NCBI GenBank assembly: GCA_964392925.1
Contig: CAYMRP010000004.1
Span: forward strand, 71,184 to 135,183
Reading direction: 5' to 3'
DNA length: 64,000 bases
Source: an uncultured Gammaproteobacteria bacterium
Lineage (GTDB): Bacteria; Patescibacteriota; Microgenomatia; Daviesbacterales; UBA10151
This document shows positions 51,850-63,784 of the stretch, in pieces. Numbering within the stretch: position 1 is the stretch's first letter; the number at the start of each line of letters is the position of its first letter. The notes beneath the pieces are model-generated. The model worked only from the letters and a program-made list of their open reading frames with translations. It did not search any database and was not told the DNA's origin. A program made the translations under genes and the position numbers.

Positions 51850-53358
51850 TTAATTTACCGGTAAGCTTGATGAAGTGCCTGCCGAAGCAGCTGGACTGCC
51901 GCTAGGTGTTGGTGAAGCTTTTTGCTGAGCAGCTCTCATCGCCGGGCTAAGCGATGCTGCTGGACTTGAAGCAGGGTCTGGTGATCCGCCTACTGTAGGT
52001 GCTGGTAATGCAGTGTCTGTTGTTGGTTCCATGACTGGAACTGGAGATGGGGCAACTATTTGTGCCGGAGGATTAGTTAATGGAGCTTGTGTCTGTTGTG
52101 TTTCTTCAACAGGTAAAGAAGTTTCATCTGTAGGTGTTGGATTAGCTTGCCCCACTCCTAATATTAAATAAGCACTTAAAGCTGCAACTATCAGGATAAT
52201 TGGAATACCCGCAACTAAAAGTACTTTTGTTAAATTTAAATGCTTACCAGGAGGTGGAGCATCGCCTTCTGCTGATTGTGGTGTTGCAGAAGCCGGAGCC
52301 ATATTCAAGTTCTGATCAGCTGCAACTGGTGGGGTATAAACTCCATTCGTCTGCGAAGGTGCTGTCTCGTCACCTGCAATTAAATGCGATAAATCAGTTG
52401 GGGCATTCTCAACAGGTCCCATGTCCGGAAGAGGGGAGGCTGTAGGTGCGGCTGCAGCCTGATCAGGTTGTATTGGTGCTTGCATAGCAGCTGGATCTGC
52501 AGGCGGAGTAGTTGTAGCCCCGAGTCCCGATTGAAGTCCTGATAAATCCATCGATCCGGGTTGCGGCTGTGAGGACATAGTTTGATCCTGAATTTGGGCA
52601 GTTTCTTGTGGTGGGTTTCCAGGCTGGACATTTAGATCAATAGTAGGTGTCGCCATTGGGTCAGACATCGAAGCTGCTACTGGCGCTGCGGTTGGCGCTG
52701 AGAACTGTGACTCTGCCGGAGCCGGTTGATCCCAAGGATTAACAGTTGGTGCAGCAGGCTGAGTAGGATCACTAGGTAGCGCCGTAGCTCCTTCAAACGG
52801 ACTCTGCGGAGGAGTCGGAGTGAATGCTGTATTCAAAGGATCAGGTGGAGTAGTTGTCTGAGCACCGTATGGTGCGGCTGGTTGTTCAGGCAAAGGCGTA
52901 GGTGCTGCAGGCTGTTCAAAGGGAGGTGATGTATTAAAAGTCCCTGCTTGAGGCTGTAAAAAAGGATTAGCGGCTGCCGGATTTTCACTTGGCACTGCTG
53001 GTTCTGGAGGTGCCATCGGAGCTGTTGGTACATCTGTCGGAACAGTCGCTTGTGGGGTAGGCGGCCACGCCGCTCCTGAACTTGCGGTCGGTGTACTTGG
53101 CAATGGTGAAGAAAATCCAGGTTCTGGTGCAACAGTTTCAACCGGTACCGGGCTCCAAGGATTAGGAGCAGCTGTTGGGTTTGATTGGGCTGGATCTGAC
53201 ACAGGCATACTGGAAGAAAGGGGAGCTGATGTTGCCGATTGGTCAGGACTGCTGGACCATCCTGGAGTTTGTTGTGGAGGGGTTAATGGATCAACAGGGG
53301 CTGCGCCAAAAGGTAAACTAGGATTGTTATTTGGATTATTAGGGTCATTACTATCCAT
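51850..53358 (-). CDS. Proline/alanine/threonine-rich low-complexity protein with a single TM helix
   Basis: The 502-aa ORF is open over 1.5 kb with extreme P/A/T/Q/S composition and one hydrophobic helix (VLLVAGIPIILIVAALSAYLILGV). It shows a marked local GC rise. Confidence 0.5.
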   Translation of the reverse strand: MDSNDPNNPNNNPSLPFGAAPVDPLTPPQQTPGWSSSPDQSATSAPLSSSMPVSDPAQSNPTAAPNPWSPVPVETVAPEPGFSSPLPSTPTASSGAAWPPTPQATVPTDVPTAPMAPPEPAVPSENPAAANPFLQPQAGTFNTSPPFEQPAAPTPLPEQPAAPYGAQTTTPPDPLNTAFTPTPPQSPFEGATALPSDPTQPAAPTVNPWDQPAPAESQFSAPTAAPVAASMSDPMATPTIDLNVQPGNPPQETAQIQDQTMSSQPQPGSMDLSGLQSGLGATTTPPADPAAMQAPIQPDQAAAAPTASPLPDMGPVENAPTDLSHLIAGDETAPSQTNGVYTPPVAADQNLNMAPASATPQSAEGDAPPPGKHLNLTKVLLVAGIPIILIVAALSAYLILGVGQANPTPTDETSLPVEETQQTQAPLTNPPAQIVAPSPVPVMEPTTDTALPAPTVGGSPDPASSPAASLSPAMRAAQQKASPTPSGSPAASAGTSSSLPVN

Positions 53359-53490
53359 GGCAGTTACTCTATAAGTTTATGCGAAGATAGCCTTAATAAT
53401 CAAGTAGTCGCATAAATTACGGTAGTGCTTTTTGCTCATTTCAGGTATAATCCCTCACACAGGGGAATTCCCAAAGTAAGAGTCAGTAAT

Positions 53491-56292
53491 ATGCTTAATT
53501 TTTTTTCTTCATTAATCGATGCCAATAAACGGGAAATTAATCGCCTCTCAAAAATCGTTGAAACCATTAATAGTTATGAAGCTAAAATCAAAAAGTTTGA
53601 CGATAAAAAGTTTAAAGAAAAAGCTCTAGATCTACGTAAAAGACATGAAAAAGGTGAAACCTTAGAGTCTCTTTTACCTGAAGCTTTTGCTTTCGCCCGC
53701 GAAGCCGCTAGCCGCAGCCTAGGCATGCGTCACTATGATGTTCAGCTAATGGCAGCCATCGCTTTGCACAGCGGTAAGATCGCCGAACAACGAACCGGTG
53801 AAGGAAAAACTATGTCTGGTGTTCCGGCCATTTTTCTAAATGCTCTTTCCGGTAAAGGTGTCCATGTAGTTACGGTAAATGATTATTTAGCTCGCCGCGA
53901 TGCAGGTTGGAATGGACCTATCTTTCATACTCTAGGTGTTTCAGTCTCAGTTATTATTCATGAAAAGGCTTTTCTTTTTGATCCAAAATATAAAGATCCA
54001 GACACAACAGATAAACGGCTTAAGAATTTAAGACCAGTCACTCGCAAAGAAGCTTATGCTGCTGATATAACTTACGGCACTAATAATGAGTTTGGTTTTG
54101 ATTATCTAAGGGACAACATGGCCAACAGCTTGGATAATATGGTTCAGCGAGGTCACAATTTCGCCATCGTTGATGAAGTAGATTCAATTTTAATTGACGA
54201 GGCCCGTACTCCATTAATTATTTCAGCCCCCGATACTGAGCCCACAGGTAAATATATTGAGTTCACCAAAATCGTCAGTCAGCTTGATGGTAAAACAGAT
54301 TATGTAGTTAACGAAAAAGAACGTGCAGCCCACATGACAGAGGAAGGTATTCTTCATATCGAAAAAATTATGGGTGTCGATAATCTTTATGAAAAAGATT
54401 TTTCTGCTCTTCACCATATAGAAGAAGCCTTAAAAGCCAGAACCCTTTTTCTTAAAGACCGCGACTATGTTGTTAAAGATGGCGAAGTAATTATTGTTGA
54501 TGAATTCACTGGCCGTTTAATGCCGGGCCGCCGTTACTCCGGAGGTCTACATCAATCAATCGAAGCCAAAGAAGGCGTTAAAATCCAACAAGAGTCAAAA
54601 ACTTTAGCCACAATTTCTTTCCAGAATTACTTCAGAATGTATAAAAAGCTTTCTGGTATGACTGGAACTGCAGCCACCGAAGCAGAAGAATTCTTTAAAA
54701 TCTATAAGCTGGAAGTAGTTATTATCCCAACTCATCAACCTATGATCAGAAAAGATAATCCTGATGCTATCTTTAAAACCCAAACCGGTAAATTGATGGC
54801 CGTCGCCTCAGAAGTTGAAAAAATTCATGCATCTGGCCAGCCTGTTTTAGTAGGTACAACTTCGATTGATAAAAACGAATTCTTATCTGAACTCTTAAAG
54901 AAAAAGCGGATCTCCCACGCACTTTTAAATGCTAAAAACCACGAACGCGAGGCCGAAATTATTGCTGATGCCGGTCAAAAAGGTTCAGTAACTGTAGCCA
55001 CTAACTTAGCCGGTCGTGGTGTCGATATTAAGCTTGGTAAAAATGTTGAAAAATTAGGCGGACTTTATGTTATCGGTACCGAACGTCACGAATCAAGGAG
55101 AATCGATAATCAATTAAGAGGCCGCTCAGGTCGTCAGGGTGACCCGGGTGCTTCCAAATTCTTTGTTTCTCTTGAAGATGATTTAATGAGAATCTTTGGC
55201 GGCGAGCAAGTCGCAAGAGTCATGGGCTTTTTAAAAATGCCGGAAGATACTCCTATCGAAAACGGTATGGTTTCCAAAGCAATTGAAGGCGCACAGAAAA
55301 AAGTTGAAGGTCATAATTTTGATATCCGTAAACATACAGTTGAATACGACGACGTTATGAATCAGCAGCGCCAGATTATTTATGGTGTCAGAAGGAATGT
55401 CCTGGATGTCTTAGCTGGAAAATCCAAAGATGGTAAATCTCTTAAGGATGAAATCATCGAAAAAATCGGCATTGAAGTCGAAGCCATCATTGATGACTAT
55501 GCGATTGAAGGGGAGATAGAATATGAAAAAATTATCGAAGATTTCTCAACCATAATTAATTTTGATCAAGCCAGCCGTAAACAGCTATTAGGCCAAATCT
55601 CAGATATCAAAGATGAAGCTAAATTAAAAGAATTTTTAGTCCGTCTCGCCGAAGATCTCTACGGTGAAAAAGAAAAAACCGTCGGTGCCGATCTGATGCG
55701 CCAAATGGAAAGCTTTGTTTACTTAAACACAATTGATACTTTTTGGATGGAACATCTCGATACAATGGATGATCTTCGCTCAGGTATCGGATTGCGCGGA
55801 TATGCCCAAAGAGATCCTCTAATCGAATATAAAAAAGAAGGCTTTGAGTTATTCGAAAAAATGATTGCTGAAATTGATTCAGAAATTGCCAGACGTATCT
55901 ATAAAGTCTCAATGCATAATCATGGGCCAGTCCAGGTTGTTTCTCCAATCGATATGTCAAAAGCCGTCGCAACCCACGATGAGGCGCTCGATGAAAAAAC
56001 CTTACTTGAAGAAGTCGGCCAGCTTATGCCGTCAGTTCCTGAAGTTCGCCACAGCGGAACCAAAATCAAAGTTGAAGGCTCAAGTAATGATGAGGCATAC
56101 TCTCAGACTCCGACTGTAGTCGAAGAACCAGTTGCTGCCGGCACCCGAGTTACTGTTGAAAGAGCCGGTCAGGTTGTCTCACAAGATGTCTATAACGATA
56201 CAGGTTCGCTCCAAAGGAAAAAGCCTGGCAGAAATGACCCCTGCCACTGCGGTTCAGGCAAAAAATATAAAAAATGCCATTATCCTAATTAG
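53491..56292 (+). CDS. secA: Preprotein translocase ATPase SecA
   Basis: DEAD-like motor (Walker A GEGKTM, DEVDSILIDEART), preprotein cross-linking and helical scaffold domains, and a C-terminal zinc finger CHCGSGKKYKKCH. The track start at 53425 is likely too early; the ATG at 53491 (MLNFFSSLID) fits SecA N-termini. Confidence 0.95.
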   Translation: MLNFFSSLIDANKREINRLSKIVETINSYEAKIKKFDDKKFKEKALDLRKRHEKGETLESLLPEAFAFAREAASRSLGMRHYDVQLMAAIALHSGKIAEQRTGEGKTMSGVPAIFLNALSGKGVHVVTVNDYLARRDAGWNGPIFHTLGVSVSVIIHEKAFLFDPKYKDPDTTDKRLKNLRPVTRKEAYAADITYGTNNEFGFDYLRDNMANSLDNMVQRGHNFAIVDEVDSILIDEARTPLIISAPDTEPTGKYIEFTKIVSQLDGKTDYVVNEKERAAHMTEEGILHIEKIMGVDNLYEKDFSALHHIEEALKARTLFLKDRDYVVKDGEVIIVDEFTGRLMPGRRYSGGLHQSIEAKEGVKIQQESKTLATISFQNYFRMYKKLSGMTGTAATEAEEFFKIYKLEVVIIPTHQPMIRKDNPDAIFKTQTGKLMAVASEVEKIHASGQPVLVGTTSIDKNEFLSELLKKKRISHALLNAKNHEREAEIIADAGQKGSVTVATNLAGRGVDIKLGKNVEKLGGLYVIGTERHESRRIDNQLRGRSGRQGDPGASKFFVSLEDDLMRIFGGEQVARVMGFLKMPEDTPIENGMVSKAIEGAQKKVEGHNFDIRKHTVEYDDVMNQQRQIIYGVRRNVLDVLAGKSKDGKSLKDEIIEKIGIEVEAIIDDYAIEGEIEYEKIIEDFSTIINFDQASRKQLLGQISDIKDEAKLKEFLVRLAEDLYGEKEKTVGADLMRQMESFVYLNTIDTFWMEHLDTMDDLRSGIGLRGYAQRDPLIEYKKEGFELFEKMIAEIDSEIARRIYKVSMHNHGPVQVVSPIDMSKAVATHDEALDEKTLLEEVGQLMPSVPEVRHSGTKIKVEGSSNDEAYSQTPTVVEEPVAAGTRVTVERAGQVVSQDVYNDTGSLQRKKPGRNDPCHCGSGKKYKKCHYPN

Positions 56293-56300
56293 GTTTTTCT

Positions 56301-56723
56301 ATGATAAAAACAGCCAGCGAAATAGTTGACCAACTTAGAACCGAAGGTCACCGTATCACCCCGATTAGAAATCGGATTCTCGATATTCTCTCCAAGAGCA
56401 CAGAGCCTATTTCGGCATTAGATTTAATAGCAGACTTTAAATCCTCAAATCTTAACGTTAACAAAACCACCATCTACCGGGAAATAGAATTTTTATTAGG
56501 CAAAAATCTTATTAATGAAGTTGAATTTGGAGATGGCAAAAAAAGATACGAGATGGATAATGGGCATCACCATCACTTAGTTTGCTTAAAGTGTGGCAAA
56601 GTTGAAGATGTTAGTTTGGAGACGGATTTATCATCGGAAGAAAAAAAGATAGAAAAAGAAACAGGTTTTAAAGTTGAATCTCATTCATTAGAATTTTTTG
56701 GAATTTGTAAAACCTGCCAATAG
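56301..56723 (+). CDS. Fur-family metalloregulator (Fur/Zur/PerR)
   Basis: N-terminal winged helix (RITPIRNRILDIL), HHHH metal site and CxxC...CxxC (HHHHLVCLKCGKV...FGICKTCQ). Confidence 0.85.
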   Translation: MIKTASEIVDQLRTEGHRITPIRNRILDILSKSTEPISALDLIADFKSSNLNVNKTTIYREIEFLLGKNLINEVEFGDGKKRYEMDNGHHHHLVCLKCGKVEDVSLETDLSSEEKKIEKETGFKVESHSLEFFGICKTCQ

Positions 56724-56808: not shown

Positions 56809-57291
56809 ATGGAAGAACAAGTAAATACACAAGGCAGTTTGCCGAAGTTTGTAATGCCCACTGTTGTTGCAGCTCTAATAGTGTTCGCAGTTATCGGTTA
56901 TTATTTTTATAATTCCGGCTCAAATAACTCGTCTCAGCCAGCATCCACTATGGAAGGCCAAGGTTCTCCTGCAGCGGTTTCAGAAAGTAATTCGAATTAT
57001 AAAAATGGTACTTACACCATTAACGGGGAATACGTTAGCCCAGGAGGGCCCAGAGAAATTGGGGTAACTTTAACTTTGACTGATGGTTTAGTAACCGCAG
57101 CAGAGAGTCAGGTGCTCGCCGAGGATGCCACCTCTAAAAGATTCCAAACCGAGTTCGTTGAAGGTTTTAAACCAATGGTTATTGGTAAAAGTCTAAACGA
57201 AGTCGTTCTATCAAAAGTTTCGGGCTCATCTTTAACTCCTAAAGGATTTAATGATGCTGTCGAAAAGATTAAAGTTGAGGCTCAGTCTTAA
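56809..57291 (+). CDS. FMN-binding domain protein (NqrC/RnfG/PplA-like), predicted extracytoplasmic, with candidate flavinylation motif
   Basis: N-terminal TM anchor and an FMN_bind-like C-terminus. KVSGSSLTPKG aligns with the (D)AVSGAT(V)TS(R) flavinylation motif; there is a strong SD (AAGGGGG) upstream; ApbE is encoded immediately downstream. Confidence 0.6.
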   Translation: MEEQVNTQGSLPKFVMPTVVAALIVFAVIGYYFYNSGSNNSSQPASTMEGQGSPAAVSESNSNYKNGTYTINGEYVSPGGPREIGVTLTLTDGLVTAAESQVLAEDATSKRFQTEFVEGFKPMVIGKSLNEVVLSKVSGSSLTPKGFNDAVEKIKVEAQS

Positions 57292-58170
57292 ATGATTTGG
57301 GATCAAAAGTTTAATTTTGAAGAAATAGGAACCTCATGGACTATTGAATATTCAGGAGTCTCAAAACTTTCACCTGAATTACTTATAGAAAAGATCCGCG
57401 CAGAAATTAATAAATTCTCGCGGGTTTTTTCTAGGTTTGACAAAAATTCAGCGGTTTTTAAATCAAGTAAAACCGCATCTGAGATTATTATTCCGGAAGC
57501 TTATTTACCGCTTCTAGCTATCTATAAATCTTTATATAAATTAACTGACGGTTTATTCACTCCTCTTGTTGGAAATTTACTTTCTGAATCAGGCTACGAC
57601 GAAGATTATTCTCTGGTTCAAAAAAAATTAAATCCTGTTCCGCAGTGGGACCAAGTTATTGAGATTTCCGGAGAAACAATTAAATTTAAAAAGCCCTGGC
57701 TTCTAGATTTTGGCGCGGCCGGCAAAGGATTTATTGTTGATCTGATAGGGGAGTTGCTGGAAGATCAAAATATTAAGTCCTATTGTATAGATGCCGGCGG
57801 AGACATTCGCTATAAATCTGATAACAATGAAAAACTAAAAATCGGCCTTGAGCACCCCGATAATTTAGATCAGGTTCTTGGAGTTGCAGATCTAGAAACA
57901 GGTAGTATTTGCGGCTCATCTGGAAATCGCCGCAAATGGGCAAATCTTCACCATATTTTCAACCCTAAAAAACTTGATTCTGTTAGAGAAGTCCTGGCAG
58001 TTTGGGTAATTTCAGATACTACTTTAATAGCAGATGCTCTCTCGACAGCTTTATTCTTTGTAAACCCGGAAAAGCTTTTAGGAGATTTTAAGTTTCAATT
58101 TCTAATAATTTACCCGGATTTCACTTTTAAAAAATCCCCAAACTTCCCCGGTGAAGTATATGTGGCATGA
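57292..58170 (+). CDS. apbE: FAD:protein FMN transferase (ApbE family)
   Basis: ApbE-family motifs (FGAAGKGFIVD, CIDAGGDI, ICGSSGNRR), 292 aa, translationally coupled to the FMN_bind gene. Confidence 0.8.
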   Translation: MIWDQKFNFEEIGTSWTIEYSGVSKLSPELLIEKIRAEINKFSRVFSRFDKNSAVFKSSKTASEIIIPEAYLPLLAIYKSLYKLTDGLFTPLVGNLLSESGYDEDYSLVQKKLNPVPQWDQVIEISGETIKFKKPWLLDFGAAGKGFIVDLIGELLEDQNIKSYCIDAGGDIRYKSDNNEKLKIGLEHPDNLDQVLGVADLETGSICGSSGNRRKWANLHHIFNPKKLDSVREVLAVWVISDTTLIADALSTALFFVNPEKLLGDFKFQFLIIYPDFTFKKSPNFPGEVYVA

Positions 58171-58197: not shown

Positions 58198-59718
58198 ATG
58201 TACTTACTTAATAAAATTGATTCTCTTCTAAATTCAATCACCATGTACCGGCTGGTGCTATATGTATTACTAGTCCAATCCGCATTCGCAATAATTCTAG
58301 GTTTTCTAAATCTCCTACCTTATTCCGGAATCCAATTCACACTGACGCTTCTAGTTTTAGTCATAGTTAGTTATATATCCAATTTAATTTTTGCCTGGAC
58401 CGTCAAAGCCGTAGTTAACGTAGAGTCCTGGTTAATAACTGCCTTGATTCTTTTTTTAGTCCTGGCCCCGATAAATAATTTTCAGGATTTTATAGTCACC
58501 ACTGTTATCGCGATAGTGGCTATGGCTTCCAAATACTTTTTAACTTATGACAAAAGACATATCTTTAATCCGGCCGCTTTAGCTATGTTTCTAGCTAGCC
58601 TTTTCGGTTTCGGAAATTCTATTTGGTGGATTGGAAGTTCAATTATGCTGCCTGTCGTTTTAGTAACCGGCTTATTAATTGTTAGAAAAATTAGGAGATT
58701 TAGGTTAGTGATTATGTTCCTTGTCACAGCTGTCCTAACAGTCAGTGTCTTTAATTATTTAAATGGTATTCCTCTTACCCAAGCCTTAATCCAAGTTTTT
58801 ACATCTTGGCCTTTAATCTTTTTTGCAACGATTATGTTAACAGAGCCATTCACAACTCCTCCCAACAGAGAGTTCCGAAATTACTACGGAGTTTTTACTG
58901 GAGCATTATTTGGCTCTCAATTCTCAATCGGTCCTCTTTACGCTTCTCCAGAGCTCGCCCTAGTTGCCGGTAATTTTGTGTCATTTCTTTTAAGTCCTAA
59001 GGGTAAATTAATCCTTAAGTTTAAACAAAGAAACCAACTCGCTCCAACAATTTTCGAATTTATTTTTTCTCACAATGGGAAATATAATTTTACTCCTGGC
59101 GAATATTTAGAATGGACCCTGCCTCACCCAAATTCAGATTCAAGAGGTGTCAGAAGATATTTCACTATTGCCTCCTCCCCAGAAGAACCAGATTTAAAAC
59201 TTGGGGTTAAAATTATTCCTGATAAATCAAGTAGTTTTAAAAAAGCTCTCTTGGCTTTACAGCCCGGCAGTACACTTGCCGCCGACCAACTCTCGGGTGA
59301 TTTTGTCCTGCCTAAAAATCCCTCTCAAAAATTAGTTTTTATTGCTGGAGGAATCGGGGTAACTCCGTTTCGCAGTATGATTAATAGTCTAATTGTTAGT
59401 GGCGCAAAAAAGGACATAGTCCTTTTTTATAGCGCCGCAGATCCAAAAGAATTCGTCTATAAAGATATTTTCACTCAAGCAGAATCTTCCGGACTTAAAA
59501 CAGTTTATGTTTTTGGCGGTAAAGAAGTACCGCCTGATTGGCAAGGGGAGACAGGATTTCTAAATGAAGCAATGCTCAGAAAATATGTCCCTGATCTGAA
59601 AGAACGGAAATTCTATATGTCAGGTCCTGTCGCGATGGTTAACAATTATAAAGGCCTTCTGAAAACCCTAGGCATCTCCAACTCATCAATCGTTACCGAC
59701 TACTTCCCCGGCTTCTAG
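58198..59718 (+). CDS. Fusion protein: NqrB/RnfD-like polytopic membrane domain + C-terminal ferredoxin-NADP reductase-like FAD/NAD(P)H-binding domain
   Basis: The N-terminal ~280 aa carry about 8 TM helices with RHIFNPAALAMF (compare RnfD/NqrB ...FNPAM/LNPAL) and TEPFTTP (compare TDPVTAS). The C-terminus has the RxYS FAD motif (RRYFTIASSPEEP) and an NAD(P)-binding GxGxxP motif (FIAGGIGVTPF). Confidence 0.65.
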   Translation: MYLLNKIDSLLNSITMYRLVLYVLLVQSAFAIILGFLNLLPYSGIQFTLTLLVLVIVSYISNLIFAWTVKAVVNVESWLITALILFLVLAPINNFQDFIVTTVIAIVAMASKYFLTYDKRHIFNPAALAMFLASLFGFGNSIWWIGSSIMLPVVLVTGLLIVRKIRRFRLVIMFLVTAVLTVSVFNYLNGIPLTQALIQVFTSWPLIFFATIMLTEPFTTPPNREFRNYYGVFTGALFGSQFSIGPLYASPELALVAGNFVSFLLSPKGKLILKFKQRNQLAPTIFEFIFSHNGKYNFTPGEYLEWTLPHPNSDSRGVRRYFTIASSPEEPDLKLGVKIIPDKSSSFKKALLALQPGSTLAADQLSGDFVLPKNPSQKLVFIAGGIGVTPFRSMINSLIVSGAKKDIVLFYSAADPKEFVYKDIFTQAESSGLKTVYVFGGKEVPPDWQGETGFLNEAMLRKYVPDLKERKFYMSGPVAMVNNYKGLLKTLGISNSSIVTDYFPGF

Positions 59719-59788: not shown

Positions 59789-59867
59789 TTACTGTGTTTC
59801 GCTAACAAGTTAGAATATTGACAAACGCCACAAAGTTGCATATACTTAATGCCACAAGGTTGCAATT

Positions 59868-60857
59868 ATGGAAAGAAGAGAAGCCTCTAACGAACTAAAT
59901 AAATCACTAAACTCTGTTGGCTTAAGACTTGAAGGTGCCCCAAAAGTTATAATCCCTAAAACGCTTAGTGCTGAAATTCTGGCAGCAAAAGCCATCGCTA
60001 TGTCAGAAGACATGCAATATGGTTTTGATTTAGCAAATATAGTCACAGATCTCAGGCAATCTGCAATCAGAACCCTAAAAGACGGAAAGTCCTTTCCATT
60101 AGTACTGGATATACCAAACCTCGCAGATCCGAATTATGAACCTACTCCAGCTGATATTGCGCCTTCTTTGCTCGCCGCAAGTCTTGGAAGTTTTGCAATT
60201 GTCAGGATTGCTATGCCAAACTCAGATCACAGTATATCGCAGCTTTACGGAACAACTACACCCAGAACAAACATTGATGAGGGGGAACTGCAATTTACTT
60301 ACATCGGATTAAGAGTCTCGAGTAAGAGCGGTTATAAATGGGAGTCCCCCGCGCAAATAGATCCTTTAAGACCAGACCTGGTCTCTCCGGCCGATATGGA
60401 AACTTATTTATCAGGTGCAAATCAACTCGGCCTAGTTGGTGATCACGATAACTCAGGAATAAAAGTTTCAGATCCAAGACACTTAATAAATCTCCTCCAC
60501 GGCCTAGCAAATCCTGGACTTAGCGGACATTGGGCAGATGCACTTGAAAGTAATGGTCAAAGAAAACTTTTGACCGAAACATCAGCAAAAAGAATAATTG
60601 CCCCTAACGAGTTTGGCGACAGCTTGTATCAAGACCCCCTAAACACGACCCCTGTATTCACAATAGGTGCAGAGAGAATTCCCATGGCCATAGTTCTGGC
60701 CCCTGAACTTATGGAAGATATAGATTCTCTTGAAACCAGACGCAGTAATAAACCGGGAAGTCTTGAAACTTTGCAAGGAATGGCGCTCGCTGCACGTTTC
60801 GCGCAGAGATTAGGGGATAGCTTAGATCGGGCAATACCTAAAAGCGGAATGATTTAA
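59868..60857 (+). CDS. Hypothetical protein (no recognisable family), GC-richer than surrounding genes
   Basis: 329-aa ORF preceded by two GCCACAARGTTGCA direct repeats and the tandem 25-nt motifs. Confidence 0.4.
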   Translation: MERREASNELNKSLNSVGLRLEGAPKVIIPKTLSAEILAAKAIAMSEDMQYGFDLANIVTDLRQSAIRTLKDGKSFPLVLDIPNLADPNYEPTPADIAPSLLAASLGSFAIVRIAMPNSDHSISQLYGTTTPRTNIDEGELQFTYIGLRVSSKSGYKWESPAQIDPLRPDLVSPADMETYLSGANQLGLVGDHDNSGIKVSDPRHLINLLHGLANPGLSGHWADALESNGQRKLLTETSAKRIIAPNEFGDSLYQDPLNTTPVFTIGAERIPMAIVLAPELMEDIDSLETRRSNKPGSLETLQGMALAARFAQRLGDSLDRAIPKSGMI

Positions 60858-60859
60858 CT

Positions 60860-61396
60860 ATGCTAGAGACAGCATCACCTAAAAAATTATTTGGAAAGAA
60901 AAAAATAGAATCTCAGGATATATCAACTCATTCTTTGGGAAACCCAATTCTAATAACAGAAACTCTCGACATTTTTAACCAAAGCCTGAGTGCCGAGATT
61001 ATAAAACAGGACCAGCAAATTACAGAGGTCCTTAAAAAAACATCAGATAACTTTATTAACTTCACAGGTCCTAAAGTTTTAGATTGGAATAAAAGTACTG
61101 GAAGAATAGCATTAGCAGAAAGTGTCATCAAAAATTCCGAAACCGAGTTTTTAGCATTCCGGCAAAGAATGACCGCTATGGCAGATGCTGATGGTTGCGG
61201 TGGTAAAAATGAAATTGCAAAATCTTCAGAGTCTGCTCTTTCTTCAAATGCGAATGTTATAGATTTTGGACAGGCGAAATTAAACAAAGCCTTAGGGATA
61301 AATAATAAACATACTCATAAATCAGGGGAACACGATCATTGTTCTCACGGCAATGATTACGGAGAATGCCCTAGCGGTTGTAAAAAAGCAGCCTAA
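60860..61396 (+). CDS. Hypothetical protein with a His/Cys-rich C-terminal putative metal-binding tail
   Basis: The 178-aa ORF ends NKHTHKSGEHDHCSHGNDYGECPSGCKKAA and is translationally coupled to the upstream ORF. Confidence 0.4.
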   Translation: MLETASPKKLFGKKKIESQDISTHSLGNPILITETLDIFNQSLSAEIIKQDQQITEVLKKTSDNFINFTGPKVLDWNKSTGRIALAESVIKNSETEFLAFRQRMTAMADADGCGGKNEIAKSSESALSSNANVIDFGQAKLNKALGINNKHTHKSGEHDHCSHGNDYGECPSGCKKAA

Positions 61397-61417: not shown

Positions 61418-62497
61418 ATGAAAAAAATCCTAGCAGTACTTCTCCTTTTTCTTGCGTTACAAATATCTCCTGCTTTAGCTCAGGAAAACTTAGATCAGAC
61501 CATAAATTCCTCTGGGTATTCAACCCCGACCGATGAAATAAAACTTGAAGGTGTAGTTTTAGAAGATGGAAAAAAAGTCGAAGTGACCTCTCCTAACCGG
61601 CAGGGCGAAATTCTAAATACTGAGCAATCTTTTAATGCCCCTAATTCTCCGAGTTTTAAAAATGGTGATAAAGTAAAAGTTTCAATCTTTACGAATCCTG
61701 ATAACTCTCAGCAAATTTTCATTACTGATTTTATTAGAACCAGCCCGCTTTATTGGCTGTTCGGGTTATTTGTTTTGCTTGTTTTAATAATAGGAAAAAA
61801 ATCAGGACTCGGCTCGCTCGTCGGTATGGCTATATCTTTTGCAGTTCTATTCCTTTTTATTGTTCCCCAAATAACCGCCGGTCAAAATCCAATCTGGACT
61901 ACTTTAATTGGAGTATTATTTATTCTTCCTATAACTTTTTATCTATCCCACGGCATCAATAAAAAAACTACTATTGCTCTTGTTTCAACTTTTCTTTCTG
62001 TTTGTTTTACCAGTCTATTATCAATCTTCTTTATTAATACCGCCAAAATTTCCGGCTATGCTAGTGAACAGGCCGGCTTTATTCAAACTGCCAGAAGCGG
62101 AAGCTTCGATATTCAGGGATTATTATTTGCCGGAATTGTAATAAGCATAATTGGTATTCTGGATGATGTCACTATTTCTCAGGCCTCCATTGTTAATCAA
62201 CTGAAGATCGAACTACCAAAAGCTAAAGTGCTAGAGCTTTATAAAAAAGCTATGAATATTGGTCGCGATCATATTGGCTCTGTTGTAAATACGTTAATTC
62301 TTGTTTATGCCGGCGCATCCCTGCCGCTTTTAGTTTTATTCACAGACAGCAGTATTGGTTTTAACGAAGCGCTCAACAATGAAATAGTCGCCGAAGAAAT
62401 AGTAAAAACTCTGGTTGCCAGCATCGGACTTGTTCTATCAATTCCTTTGACCACAATTCTGGCTGCTTATTTTCTCAGTAATGACAAAGAAGCTTAA
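61418..62497 (+). CDS. YibE/F-family integral membrane protein
   Basis: Signal peptide, an N-terminal extracytoplasmic domain, then about 8 TM helices; the layout matches YibE/F-like proteins. Confidence 0.5.
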   Translation: MKKILAVLLLFLALQISPALAQENLDQTINSSGYSTPTDEIKLEGVVLEDGKKVEVTSPNRQGEILNTEQSFNAPNSPSFKNGDKVKVSIFTNPDNSQQIFITDFIRTSPLYWLFGLFVLLVLIIGKKSGLGSLVGMAISFAVLFLFIVPQITAGQNPIWTTLIGVLFILPITFYLSHGINKKTTIALVSTFLSVCFTSLLSIFFINTAKISGYASEQAGFIQTARSGSFDIQGLLFAGIVISIIGILDDVTISQASIVNQLKIELPKAKVLELYKKAMNIGRDHIGSVVNTLILVYAGASLPLLVLFTDSSIGFNEALNNEIVAEEIVKTLVASIGLVLSIPLTTILAAYFLSNDKEA

Positions 62498-62862
62498 GAA
62501 TTAATAATTGCTCTTGTCGCTTCAACATCCCTGGCCATTTGTGCAGTCAAATCTTTCTTATCAGGAAAATTCATAACTGGTCTTAAAAATTTAATAACTT
62601 CAACTTCGAATTCACGGGAATTCGGAATATCCGATTCCTTCGTATCAATTAAAAAGAACTCCAATGTTTTATCATCTTCTAAGAAAACCGGAATCGGCCC
62701 GTAATGCATTGCACCAATAAATTCTTTGTCTTCAATAAAAACTTTAACTGCATAAATTCCGTCATCTAAAATTAAGTCTGTTGGGATTTCTAAATTGATT
62801 GTTGGGAACCCTAAGATCTTCCCCCGGCCCTTCCCTTTAACTTGTGTGCTCTTAAACCTCAT
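62494..62862 (-). CDS. Riboflavin kinase (stand-alone flavokinase domain)
   Basis: GKGRGKILGFPTINL matches the RibF kinase-domain motif GxGRGKxLGFPTAN. The ORF is 122 aa and overlaps the upstream DMT gene by 11 nt. Confidence 0.75.
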   Translation of the reverse strand: MRFKSTQVKGKGRGKILGFPTINLEIPTDLILDDGIYAVKVFIEDKEFIGAMHYGPIPVFLEDDKTLEFFLIDTKESDIPNSREFEVEVIKFLRPVMNFPDKKDLTAQMARDVEATRAIINS

Positions 62863-63784
62863 GCTTTAATTGTAGTGAAGATAATCTCCAAATACTAAAC
62901 ATCAAAACCGCAGCTGCCAATAATTGAGTTGGAGCCAAGAATGTTTTATACAAAACTGCATCAATAATAATAGTTAACACCGGAAACACTAATTCCAAAA
63001 TAGTCGCCACCCTAACTGGAGTCTGTTTAAGACCTTTGTAATAGATAAGCAGTGCCACCATACCAGTCGATAAAGCAATAAATCCAAATTTTAGAAACTG
63101 CGAAAAATCTGGTGTAAACAATTGCGGCATCGCCCCTAGAAAAATAATAAATGGAATAGCCAAAATTGTTGTAAAAATAAATCGTAGTCCGGTAACTGTA
63201 TTAGAGTCATACTTTGTTAAAGCCATTTTAGAGAATGTTGTCGAAGTTCCCCAAGCAAACGCTGCTCCTAACGCAAATAAAGCTGCAGTTGCAGTTCCGC
63301 TGCCAGTCCCAAAATTAACCACCCCACCAGGGAAAGTGACAAAGTATGCAGCCGCAAATGCTAGGAGTGCCCAAGGTAAATAACTCTTTTTAATCGGTTC
63401 TTTAAGAAAAATTATCGCCGAGGAAATTGCAAAAATCGGCTGTAGTTTTTGGAGTAAAAATACGACAGAGAAAGGGATGAAGTTAACTTGCAAAAGTGCA
63501 GTTGTAAACCAAAGTGTACCTAATACACCGCTAAGCAACCCAATCACAATTAAAAGTAAAAATTCTTTCCGGGTTAAACGGACAGTAATTAATTTTTTCC
63601 AGATAAATGGAATTAAAATTAATAGTCCTATTAGATGCTCATAAAATACAATAATAATCGGCGGTAAAGAATAAAGGCTCCGTCTAACAACTCCGTCCAA
63701 AGCCCAAAGCACTGCTGCCGTAATAATTAATACTGGCCCTACTTTTAAAATATGTTTAATGAAGTGATTCATATAGATCCCCAC
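62852..63784 (-). CDS. DMT-superfamily (EamA-like) transporter
   Basis: 310 aa with 10 predicted TM helices arranged as two EamA-like repeats. Confidence 0.75.
   Translation of the reverse strand: MGIYMNHFIKHILKVGPVLIITAAVLWALDGVVRRSLYSLPPIIIVFYEHLIGLLILIPFIWKKLITVRLTRKEFLLLIVIGLLSGVLGTLWFTTALLQVNFIPFSVVFLLQKLQPIFAISSAIIFLKEPIKKSYLPWALLAFAAAYFVTFPGGVVNFGTGSGTATAALFALGAAFAWGTSTTFSKMALTKYDSNTVTGLRFIFTTILAIPFIIFLGAMPQLFTPDFSQFLKFGFIALSTGMVALLIYYKGLKQTPVRVATILELVFPVLTIIIDAVLYKTFLAPTQLLAAAVLMFSIWRLSSLQLKHEV

Follow-up and report, generated by a model that had tools for sequence, protein, structure and literature searches.

The 64,000 nt stretch analysed here (the window), part of contig CAYMRP010000004.1 from an uncultured bacterium placed by GTDB in the Patescibacteriota, contains three adjacent genes that probably encode a complete NQR/RNF-like, flavinylation-associated electron-transfer module (Table 1). 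The last of them codes for a protein of 506 amino acids (aa) in which a membrane domain of the RnfD/NqrB type is fused to a reductase domain of the FNR/NqrF type, and the two genes directly upstream, for an FMN_bind-type partner and an ApbE flavin transferase, complete the cassette. The case is built on the identities of the domains, a topology derived from the distribution of charges, a membrane domain that has lost its flavinylation site in cis, and the conservation of the three-gene cassette. The class is already known. Judged from its genes, the system appears to be exactly the bioinformatically defined NQR/RNF-like system of Méheust et al. 2021, and the window locus is a divergent candidate-phyla member of that kind. 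A first-pass annotation, made from the sequence alone, had read the fusion as a relay of electrons from NAD(P)H to an extracytoplasmic flavoprotein; this reading is supported here and is identical to the published model, so that the annotation re-derived a published hypothesis.

Table 1. Coordinates of the cassette and of neighbouring genes in the window.
Feature	Coordinates	Strand	Remarks
Partner, membrane-anchored, NqrC/RnfG-like subunit	56809..57291	+	160 aa; family matches PF04205; predicted acceptor of flavin mononucleotide (FMN) Ser141
ApbE-family FAD:protein FMN transferase	57292..58170	+	292 aa; PF02424 E 2e-41, domain from aa 13
Fusion protein, whole	58198..59718	+	506 aa; ATG start
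Fusion, N-terminal membrane domain	58198..59007	+	aa 1-270; predicted RnfD/NqrB fold, periplasmic flavinylated loop deleted
Fusion, C-terminal cytoplasmic FNR/NqrF-type FAD and NAD(P)H-binding reductase domain	59008..59718	+	aa 271-506 plus stop codon
Fur-family metalloregulator	56301..56723	+	PF01475 E 7e-28; immediately upstream of the cassette
Pro/Ala/Thr/Ser-rich low-complexity protein	51850..53358	-	502 aa; one predicted transmembrane helix
SecA	53425..56292	+	955 aa; GTG start
ORF without Pfam or NCBIfam match	59868..60857	+	329 aa
ORF without Pfam or NCBIfam match	60860..61396	+	178 aa
YibE/F membrane protein	61418..62497
Stand-alone riboflavin kinase domain	62494..62862	-	122 aa; C-terminal part of RibF
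EamA/DMT-family transporter	62852..63784	-

A membrane domain fused to a reductase domain

The fusion is exactly one open reading frame (ORF) in the ORF listing, and Pfam, NCBIfam and structure checks place on this one polypeptide both the membrane NqrB/RnfD-type domain and the NAD(P)H:FAD (flavin adenine dinucleotide) reductase domain that the first-pass annotation had assigned to it. In the reductase half, aa 381-484 match PF00175 NAD_binding_1 in Pfam (E 5e-16), and the region of aa ~275-503, which takes in both FNR lobes, is matched by the NCBIfam flavohaemoprotein, GbcB, nqrF (TIGR01941, E 1e-17) and Fre models. PF00970 FAD_binding_6 is undetected by Pfam in the window fusion even at E<=10, and is matched in the full-length homologues L016, L021, P0031 and P0092. 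Sequence matches in the PDB include T4moF and the FAD domain of NqrF. Modelled at full length by AlphaFold2 with 45 homologues, the protein gives a confident structure (pLDDT 90.2, pTM 0.85) whose fold spans both FNR lobes; Foldseek aligns it with T4moF (4wqm, E 6e-17), the NqrF FAD domain (7qty, TMt 0.73) and Fre (TMt 0.84), and also with SpNOX by way of the SpNOX dehydrogenase domain.

The C-terminal domain has the two-lobed fold and the RxY[ST], GGxGxxP and (C/S)GP motifs of the FNR superfamily, and shares these, together with a C-terminal aromatic residue, with T4moF, Fre and flavohaemoglobin reductase. Invariant in 45 sequences are R-R-Y-F-T-I-A-S (RxY[ST]-type; R319-R320-(Y)-F322-T323), A-G-G-I-G-x-T-P (G384-G385-I-G387-x-T-P390), S-G-P (S475-G-P477) and a terminal D-Y-F-P-G-F. 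NqrF itself has an N-terminal 2Fe-2S ferredoxin domain and a transmembrane helix, whereas the window reductase lacks both and is tethered directly to the RnfD/NqrB-like domain, so that it would bypass the NqrD/E iron centre.

For the N-terminal domain the RnfD/NqrB call is marginal in sequence. PF03116 NQR2_RnfD_RnfE matches aa 140-238 with 28.0 bits at a gathering score of 27.7, and the match is partial (profile positions 165-259 of 296). Searched as a profile against PDB sequences the domain finds RnfD 8ahx_D weakly (E 0.05), pairwise phmmer gives no match between the fusion and E. coli RsxD (reference sequence from NC_000913), and hhalign aligns the domain with RsxD over aa 159-261 (E 2.6e-4). 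Because the E of 0.05 and the empty phmmer search left sequence comparison insufficient, structure prediction was needed, and because Foldseek with the full-length model returned FNR-family matches only, aa 1-272 were modelled separately (pLDDT 84.5). The 14 best Foldseek matches of this model are RnfD and NqrB chains (TMq 0.58-0.71), and urea transporters come next at <0.5. By two structure-level methods and a profile comparison, then, the N-terminal domain is assigned the RnfD/NqrB fold. The structural comparison that the first-pass annotation had called for thus matches the N-terminal model to RnfD/NqrB and the C-terminal part to the FAD domain of NqrF, and the N-terminal domain lies nearer to RnfD/NqrB than to an unrelated transporter.

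The motifs FNPA and LT(D/E)PxT are common to the membrane domain and RsxD, and both are invariant in the fusion family. The domain is, as had been remarked before, shorter than usual, with 272 aa compared to 304-412 aa in solved RnfD/NqrB chains, or ~30-140 residues less. The missing part corresponds to the flavinylated loop. RnfD and NqrB carry FMN bound covalently to a Thr of a periplasmic loop of the SGAT type; in RsxD the residues 'SQAT' (184-187) belong to a long segment that links the FNPA helix to the transmembrane helix after it, and, according to literature cited in PMC8238504 (Backiel 2008), T187 is the residue of RnfD that is flavinylated. When RsxD and the fusion are aligned globally, RsxD residues ~130-232 stand opposite only ~35 fusion residues (aa 124-158), the segment around SQAT187 has no counterpart, and a scan of aa 1-272 for [STAG][GSQ][AS][ST] is empty. 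The earlier failure to locate an SGAT-type loop is thereby borne out, and the alignment that had been suggested to settle the matter gives a deletion of the loop relative to RsxD. The distribution of Lys and Arg along the predicted helices (aa 112-121, 163-169 and 266-275 inside, the shortened loop at aa 136-150 outside) indicates that the reductase half would face the cytoplasm and that the deletion would lie on the outer face, where RnfD/NqrB normally bear covalent FMN.

We note that the first 20 residues of the fusion (58198..58257) carry a nearly invariant motif, I-D-x-[F/L]-L-N-x-[I/Y]-T-M-Y-R (D8, L11, N12, T15, M16, Y17), still recognisable in the Ktedonospora and Mesorhizobium homologues. 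It might be a flavin contact on the cytoplasmic face or a contact with the reductase domain.

The fusion is widespread at full length. The best 120 database homologues are nearly all ~505 aa long, with 94-100% query coverage and identities from 94% down to 49%, and their source names include Daviesbacteria, Levybacteria and 'RnfD subunit/ferredoxin-NADP reductase'. When one genome per species is scanned, full-length matches come from Saccharibacteria, Amesbacteria, Levyibacteriota, Peribacteraceae, Nomurabacteria, Adlerbacteria, Ktedonospora formicarum, Anaerolineales, Mesorhizobium, Methylocapsa, Phyllobacterium, Micrococcales and Nocardioides; the Ktedonospora homologue, from the class to which the published K. 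racemifer example also belongs, is 45% identical over its full length. With a profile of the membrane domain only, a search of 1.84 billion cluster representatives matches 2196 proteins at E<=1e-3, of which 576 reach E<=1e-30. Among the best 150 matches listed, the majority are 470-590 aa long, and so the RnfD/NqrB-like membrane domain of this family is practically always fused; shorter proteins among the matches are probably fragments at contig ends.

Since the homologues are nearly all ~505 aa long and cover 94-100% of the query, the fusion is not an artefact. The first-pass annotation had named an assembly or frameshift artefact as a possible undoing of its proposal, and this is contradicted by the full-length homologues, the species scan and the membrane-domain profile search alike. 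That the fusion should be such an artefact, or that its N-terminal domain should belong to some unrelated family of channels or transporters (those for urea or ammonium, for example), is almost certainly wrong: the PF03116 score right at the threshold and the presence of urea and Amt/Rh channels among the weaker structural neighbours speak for it, and it is rejected on the full-length alignment of the ~505 aa homologues and on the 14 best Foldseek matches, all RnfD/NqrB.

The partner protein and its flavin transferase

The partner consists of an N-terminal hydrophobic transmembrane helix, a Ser/Asn/Pro-rich linker and a divergent C-terminal FMN_bind domain of ~95 aa. The window copy has no Pfam match, and Pfam would not recognise it as FMN_bind; its family membership comes from a Pfam scan of each homologue, in which PF04205 FMN_bind is matched by 16 of the 31 aligned members (best E 7.9e-6). 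Some homologues are labelled 'uncharacterized protein with FMN-binding domain' by JGI. The matches of the partner profile to PDB sequences involve the transmembrane helix only and were discarded as spurious.

The motif [S/T]-K-V-[S/A]-G-S-S-L-[T/S]-P (57211..57240, aa 135-144), invariant in 31 homologues, aligns with 'FTGATITP' of E. coli RsxG, in which the T is flavinylated, and with D(I/V)(I/V)(S/T)GA(T/S) of the partners in distant clusters, and on this alignment Ser141 is the predicted FMN acceptor. Relative to the canonical D-x-x-[S/T]-G-A-[S/T] the G and the acceptor S are kept and the D and A are changed, some members also differing at the first S/T; the Saccharibacteria relative L007 has K-V-S-S-S-S. 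In published mutagenesis of the flavinylation motif, D to A had a minor effect and A to V left ~50% flavinylation. Around the transmembrane helix (aa ~11-33, KD19 2.25) there is a slight positive-inside bias (K+R 1.45 vs 0.84) that favours an N-in orientation.

The ATG of the ApbE gene abuts the stop codon of the partner gene (TAAATG in the window, TAATG in L004, a wastewater contig 94% identical to the window), which suggests that the two may be translationally coupled. In 21 of the related loci examined, the gene directly before the fusion is that for ApbE. The FMN_bind-type gene precedes ApbE in related loci, the same gene order occurring in L001, L004, L007, L008, L016, L019, L033 and L034, and the cassette is confirmed by Pfam in Ktedonospora, Mesorhizobium and two Patescibacteria-type loci; the loci come from four phyla. 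Among components of the Rnf/Nqr type, related loci contain the FMN_bind gene, ApbE and the fusion only, and the ORFs of the window include no homologue of RsxA/B/C/E/G at phmmer E<=1.

The window ApbE has no signal peptide or lipobox. A leader is likewise missing in all 21 loci with ApbE upstream, across four phyla (the in-frame upstream stretch has a maximum 15-residue Kyte-Doolittle mean <0.7). This contrasts with the presumed target, a membrane-anchored, outward-facing FMN_bind protein. Read-through of the stop codon, joining partner and ApbE, would explain the missing leader; we rejected it, as the stop codon is TAA and the reading frames of the two genes, which agree in the window, differ in the 94% identical relative.

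An arrangement in which the chemistry is cytoplasmic has to be weighed here: the leaderless ApbE would modify either the partner, inserted N-out/C-in, or the fusion, and the membrane domain would reduce a membrane-soluble acceptor, as NqrB does with quinone. The absence of a signal peptide in the window and the 21 other loci agrees with this, as do the only slight charge bias of the partner anchor and the cytosolic ApbEs with cytosolic targets known in K. pneumoniae (PMC12052999). We nevertheless regard it as improbable. NqrC/RnfG homologues are extracytoplasmic, and the partner has, after its signal-anchor, the kind of Ser/Asn/Pro-rich tether that surface proteins typically have. Lys and Arg distribution places the deleted loop, and with it the vacant flavin pocket, on the outer face, and a published AlphaFold-multimer model docks the flavinylation site of the partner at that pocket. 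Moreover, ApbE can modify unfolded tags of 7 residues, so that attachment of FMN to the partner in the cytoplasm, before its domain is exported, is conceivable. Because ApbE is leaderless in every locus examined and the partner motif K-V-S-G-S-S is non-canonical, the candidate-phyla subfamily may depart from the published picture in such pre-export attachment, and flavin-based outward transfer of NAD(P)H electrons might be a widespread and overlooked redox outlet of the respiration-less Patescibacteria; we hold this departure to be rather unlikely.

Electron path, known systems and possible roles

If the three genes form an NQR/RNF-like module, the best-supported scheme is as follows. NAD(P)H would reduce FAD in the cytoplasmic C-terminal domain, in which the domain identity and the cofactor motifs are seen and the cofactor itself is presumed. 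Electrons would then cross the membrane by way of the RnfD/NqrB-like domain, probably through a non-covalent flavin at the NqrB/RnfD position, and reach the FMN that ApbE would have attached covalently to Ser141 of the partner. As the loop bearing the in-cis site is deleted, the partner FMN would dock in trans at the site where NqrB and RnfD bear their own covalent FMN. The two-subunit complex of Ktedonobacter racemifer has been modelled in this way by Huang et al. 2024 (PMC10979944), with the partner flavinylation site docked at the flavin pocket of the membrane domain in an AlphaFold-multimer model. Finally, electrons would pass to an acceptor outside the cytoplasm; the most plausible candidates are Fe(III), reduced in the course of iron assimilation, and a general sink through which NAD(P)+ is regenerated. 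The flow would presumably be one-way and outward, unlike the semicircular path in the complexes of RnfD and NqrB; those canonical subunits also belong to six-subunit complexes, whereas no RnfA/B/C/E/G homologue occurs in the 64 kb window.

NQR/RNF-like systems are operationally defined by a PF03116 plus PF00175 fusion in a flavinylation-associated cluster (PMC8238504), and their membrane domain does not conserve the Thr that is flavinylated in NqrB/RnfD (PMC10979944). In the window PF00175 is on the same polypeptide, with the fusion kept at full length; ApbE is adjacent and an FMN_bind-family gene precedes it, both within five genes; and the Thr is not conserved. The window system thus resembles the published ones (PMC8238504, PMC10979944) in its PF03116-type plus PF00175 fusion beside ApbE and FMN_bind, in having two structural subunits, and in the loss of the Thr, and also in a taxonomic range that takes in Actinobacteria plus the candidate phyla radiation. 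It differs in that its subfamily is more divergent, with PF03116 only at the threshold, that its partner falls below the PF04205 threshold and has K-V-S-G-S-S instead of D-x-x-[S/T]-G-A-[S/T], and that a Fur gene adjoins the cassette. Its ApbE is of a long form (292 aa), compared to ~246 aa in the Ktedonospora and Mesorhizobium clusters. A likeness also exists to the PF00175-fused MsrQ-like and PepSY-like systems and to ferric-reductase-domain proteins of the NOX type (SpNOX), in which a cytoplasmic FNR-type NAD(P)H dehydrogenase is fused to an outward transmembrane conduit; the MsrQ-like and PepSY-like systems are, as in the window, often encoded beside ApbE and FMN_bind genes. Their conduits, however, are di-haem helical bundles, whereas that of the window has the predicted RnfD/NqrB fold and is presumably flavin-based, and no haem-ligand pattern is seen in the conduit of the window fusion.

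Several points weigh against the assignment to a complete NQR/RNF-like module. At sequence level the PF03116 (RnfD/NqrB) call is borderline and phmmer does not connect the fusion with RsxD. The deviation of the partner motif from D-x-x-[S/T]-G-A-[S/T] makes covalent flavinylation of the partner less certain, and a leaderless ApbE would fit poorly with flavinylation outside the cell. A Fur gene adjoins the cassette only in the window and in L004, and in 0 of 29 other loci. In the literature searched we found no biochemical characterisation of any member of the NQR/RNF-like system.

Two roles for the same module can be considered, and for each there are hints from the gene context. In the first, which would be under Fur control, NAD(P)H electrons would serve to reduce Fe(III) or Fe(III)-chelates outside the cell so that the iron can be taken up. 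The Fur-family regulator directly upstream points this way. So do the VIT1-family ferrous iron transporter gene (PF01988, E 4.5e-68; L021 3507..4253, - strand) that adjoins the FMN_bind-ApbE-fusion cassette of a Mesorhizobium sp., the six published clusters that also have VIT1 (PMC8238504), and the ties of the analogous PF00175-fused MsrQ-like and PepSY-like systems to iron reduction (PMC8238504). The Mesorhizobium arrangement agrees with the VIT1 association described in print, and for some lineages it supports a role in iron reduction. Against this role stand the restriction of Fur adjacency to the window and its near-identical relative, the lack of a recognisable Fur box in the 85 bp spacer, a regulator that could equally be of the PerR or Zur type, with all NCBIfam scores under the cut-off, and the absence of an iron transporter beside the window cassette. 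Assimilatory ferric reduction is therefore a tentative assignment, possible and nothing firmer.

In the second role the module would act as a redox valve, regenerating NAD(P)+ in a fermentative, respiration-less candidate-phyla bacterium by extracellular electron transfer to whatever external acceptor is at hand, or would provide enzymes that repair the cell surface with reducing power. Daviesbacteria and Levybacteria are the names given to the closest homologues, and Saccharibacteria, Amesbacteria and Nomurabacteria those of further relatives. These candidate-phyla lineages are not known to have respiratory chains, and the fusion family is very abundant in them; furthermore, related loci have no dedicated acceptor gene conserved next to the cassette. 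The support is purely contextual, however, and the same cassette occurs in respiring Alphaproteobacteria and Actinomycetota, where a valve is less needed, so that we give this role about the same doubtful standing as ferric reduction. Taken together, the neighbouring genes (Fur in the window, VIT1 in other loci) are a hint of iron reduction, and the abundance of the family in Patescibacteria without respiration is a hint of a redox valve.

Neighbouring genes, under-counting and significance

The Fur gene begins only 8 bases after SecA and may be co-transcribed with it. The best NCBIfam matches of its product are Fur and PerR models, all under the cut-offs; no Fur-box-like palindrome is seen in the 85 bp spacer, and the regulatory link of this protein to the cassette is a weak one, such that it may regulate it. 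Because the 94% identical contig calls SecA at 933 aa, its true start is probably downstream of the listed GTG. Upstream on the opposite strand, the low-complexity protein accounts for a local rise in GC (~0.50 against a background of ~0.38). An Rfam scan of 48-64 kb finds one tRNA only.

Downstream of the fusion, a strong promoter-like site (11/12) at 59818-59846 suggests that the ORFs there may be a separate transcription unit; promoter-like and terminator-like sites in the scan are not enriched over shuffled sequence. The second of two unassigned ORFs ends in a His/Cys-rich tail (HTHKSGEHDHCSHGNDYGECPSGCKK) and is followed by the YibE/F gene. About 2.8 kb downstream of the cassette the riboflavin kinase gene overlaps that of the EamA/DMT transporter, a pair that could provide flavin uptake and activation feeding the system. 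None of these is a conserved neighbour: Fur, the two ORFs, the flavokinase and EamA were rejected as such, being found only in the near-identical relative L004, and YibE/F likewise, being found in that relative and in one further locus, L030, next to the fusion.

The published census required a predicted signal peptide on the ApbE or FMN_bind protein (PMC8238504) and described the candidate phyla radiation as 'strikingly underrepresented' (PMC8238504). Because of that requirement, and because precomputed PF03116 is found on 60 of the 120 closest fusion homologues and PF04205 on 1 of 120 partner homologues, the candidate-phyla subfamily was probably under-counted, and censuses based on Pfam thresholds probably miss much of the NQR/RNF-like family.

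The locus adds a well-documented divergent example and not a new concept; possibly slightly new are the leaderless ApbE, the variant partner motif and the likely under-counting. If FMN were attached before export, such minimal cells could do without an FAD exporter. The three genes are a compact candidate for a first biochemical test of the NQR/RNF-like model. The module would be a minimal, flavin-only means of transferring NAD(P)H electrons across the membrane, with the six subunits of Nqr and Rnf reduced to two proteins, and in candidate-phyla bacteria without respiration it could, as has already been proposed in print, be a main route for iron reduction or the disposal of reductant.

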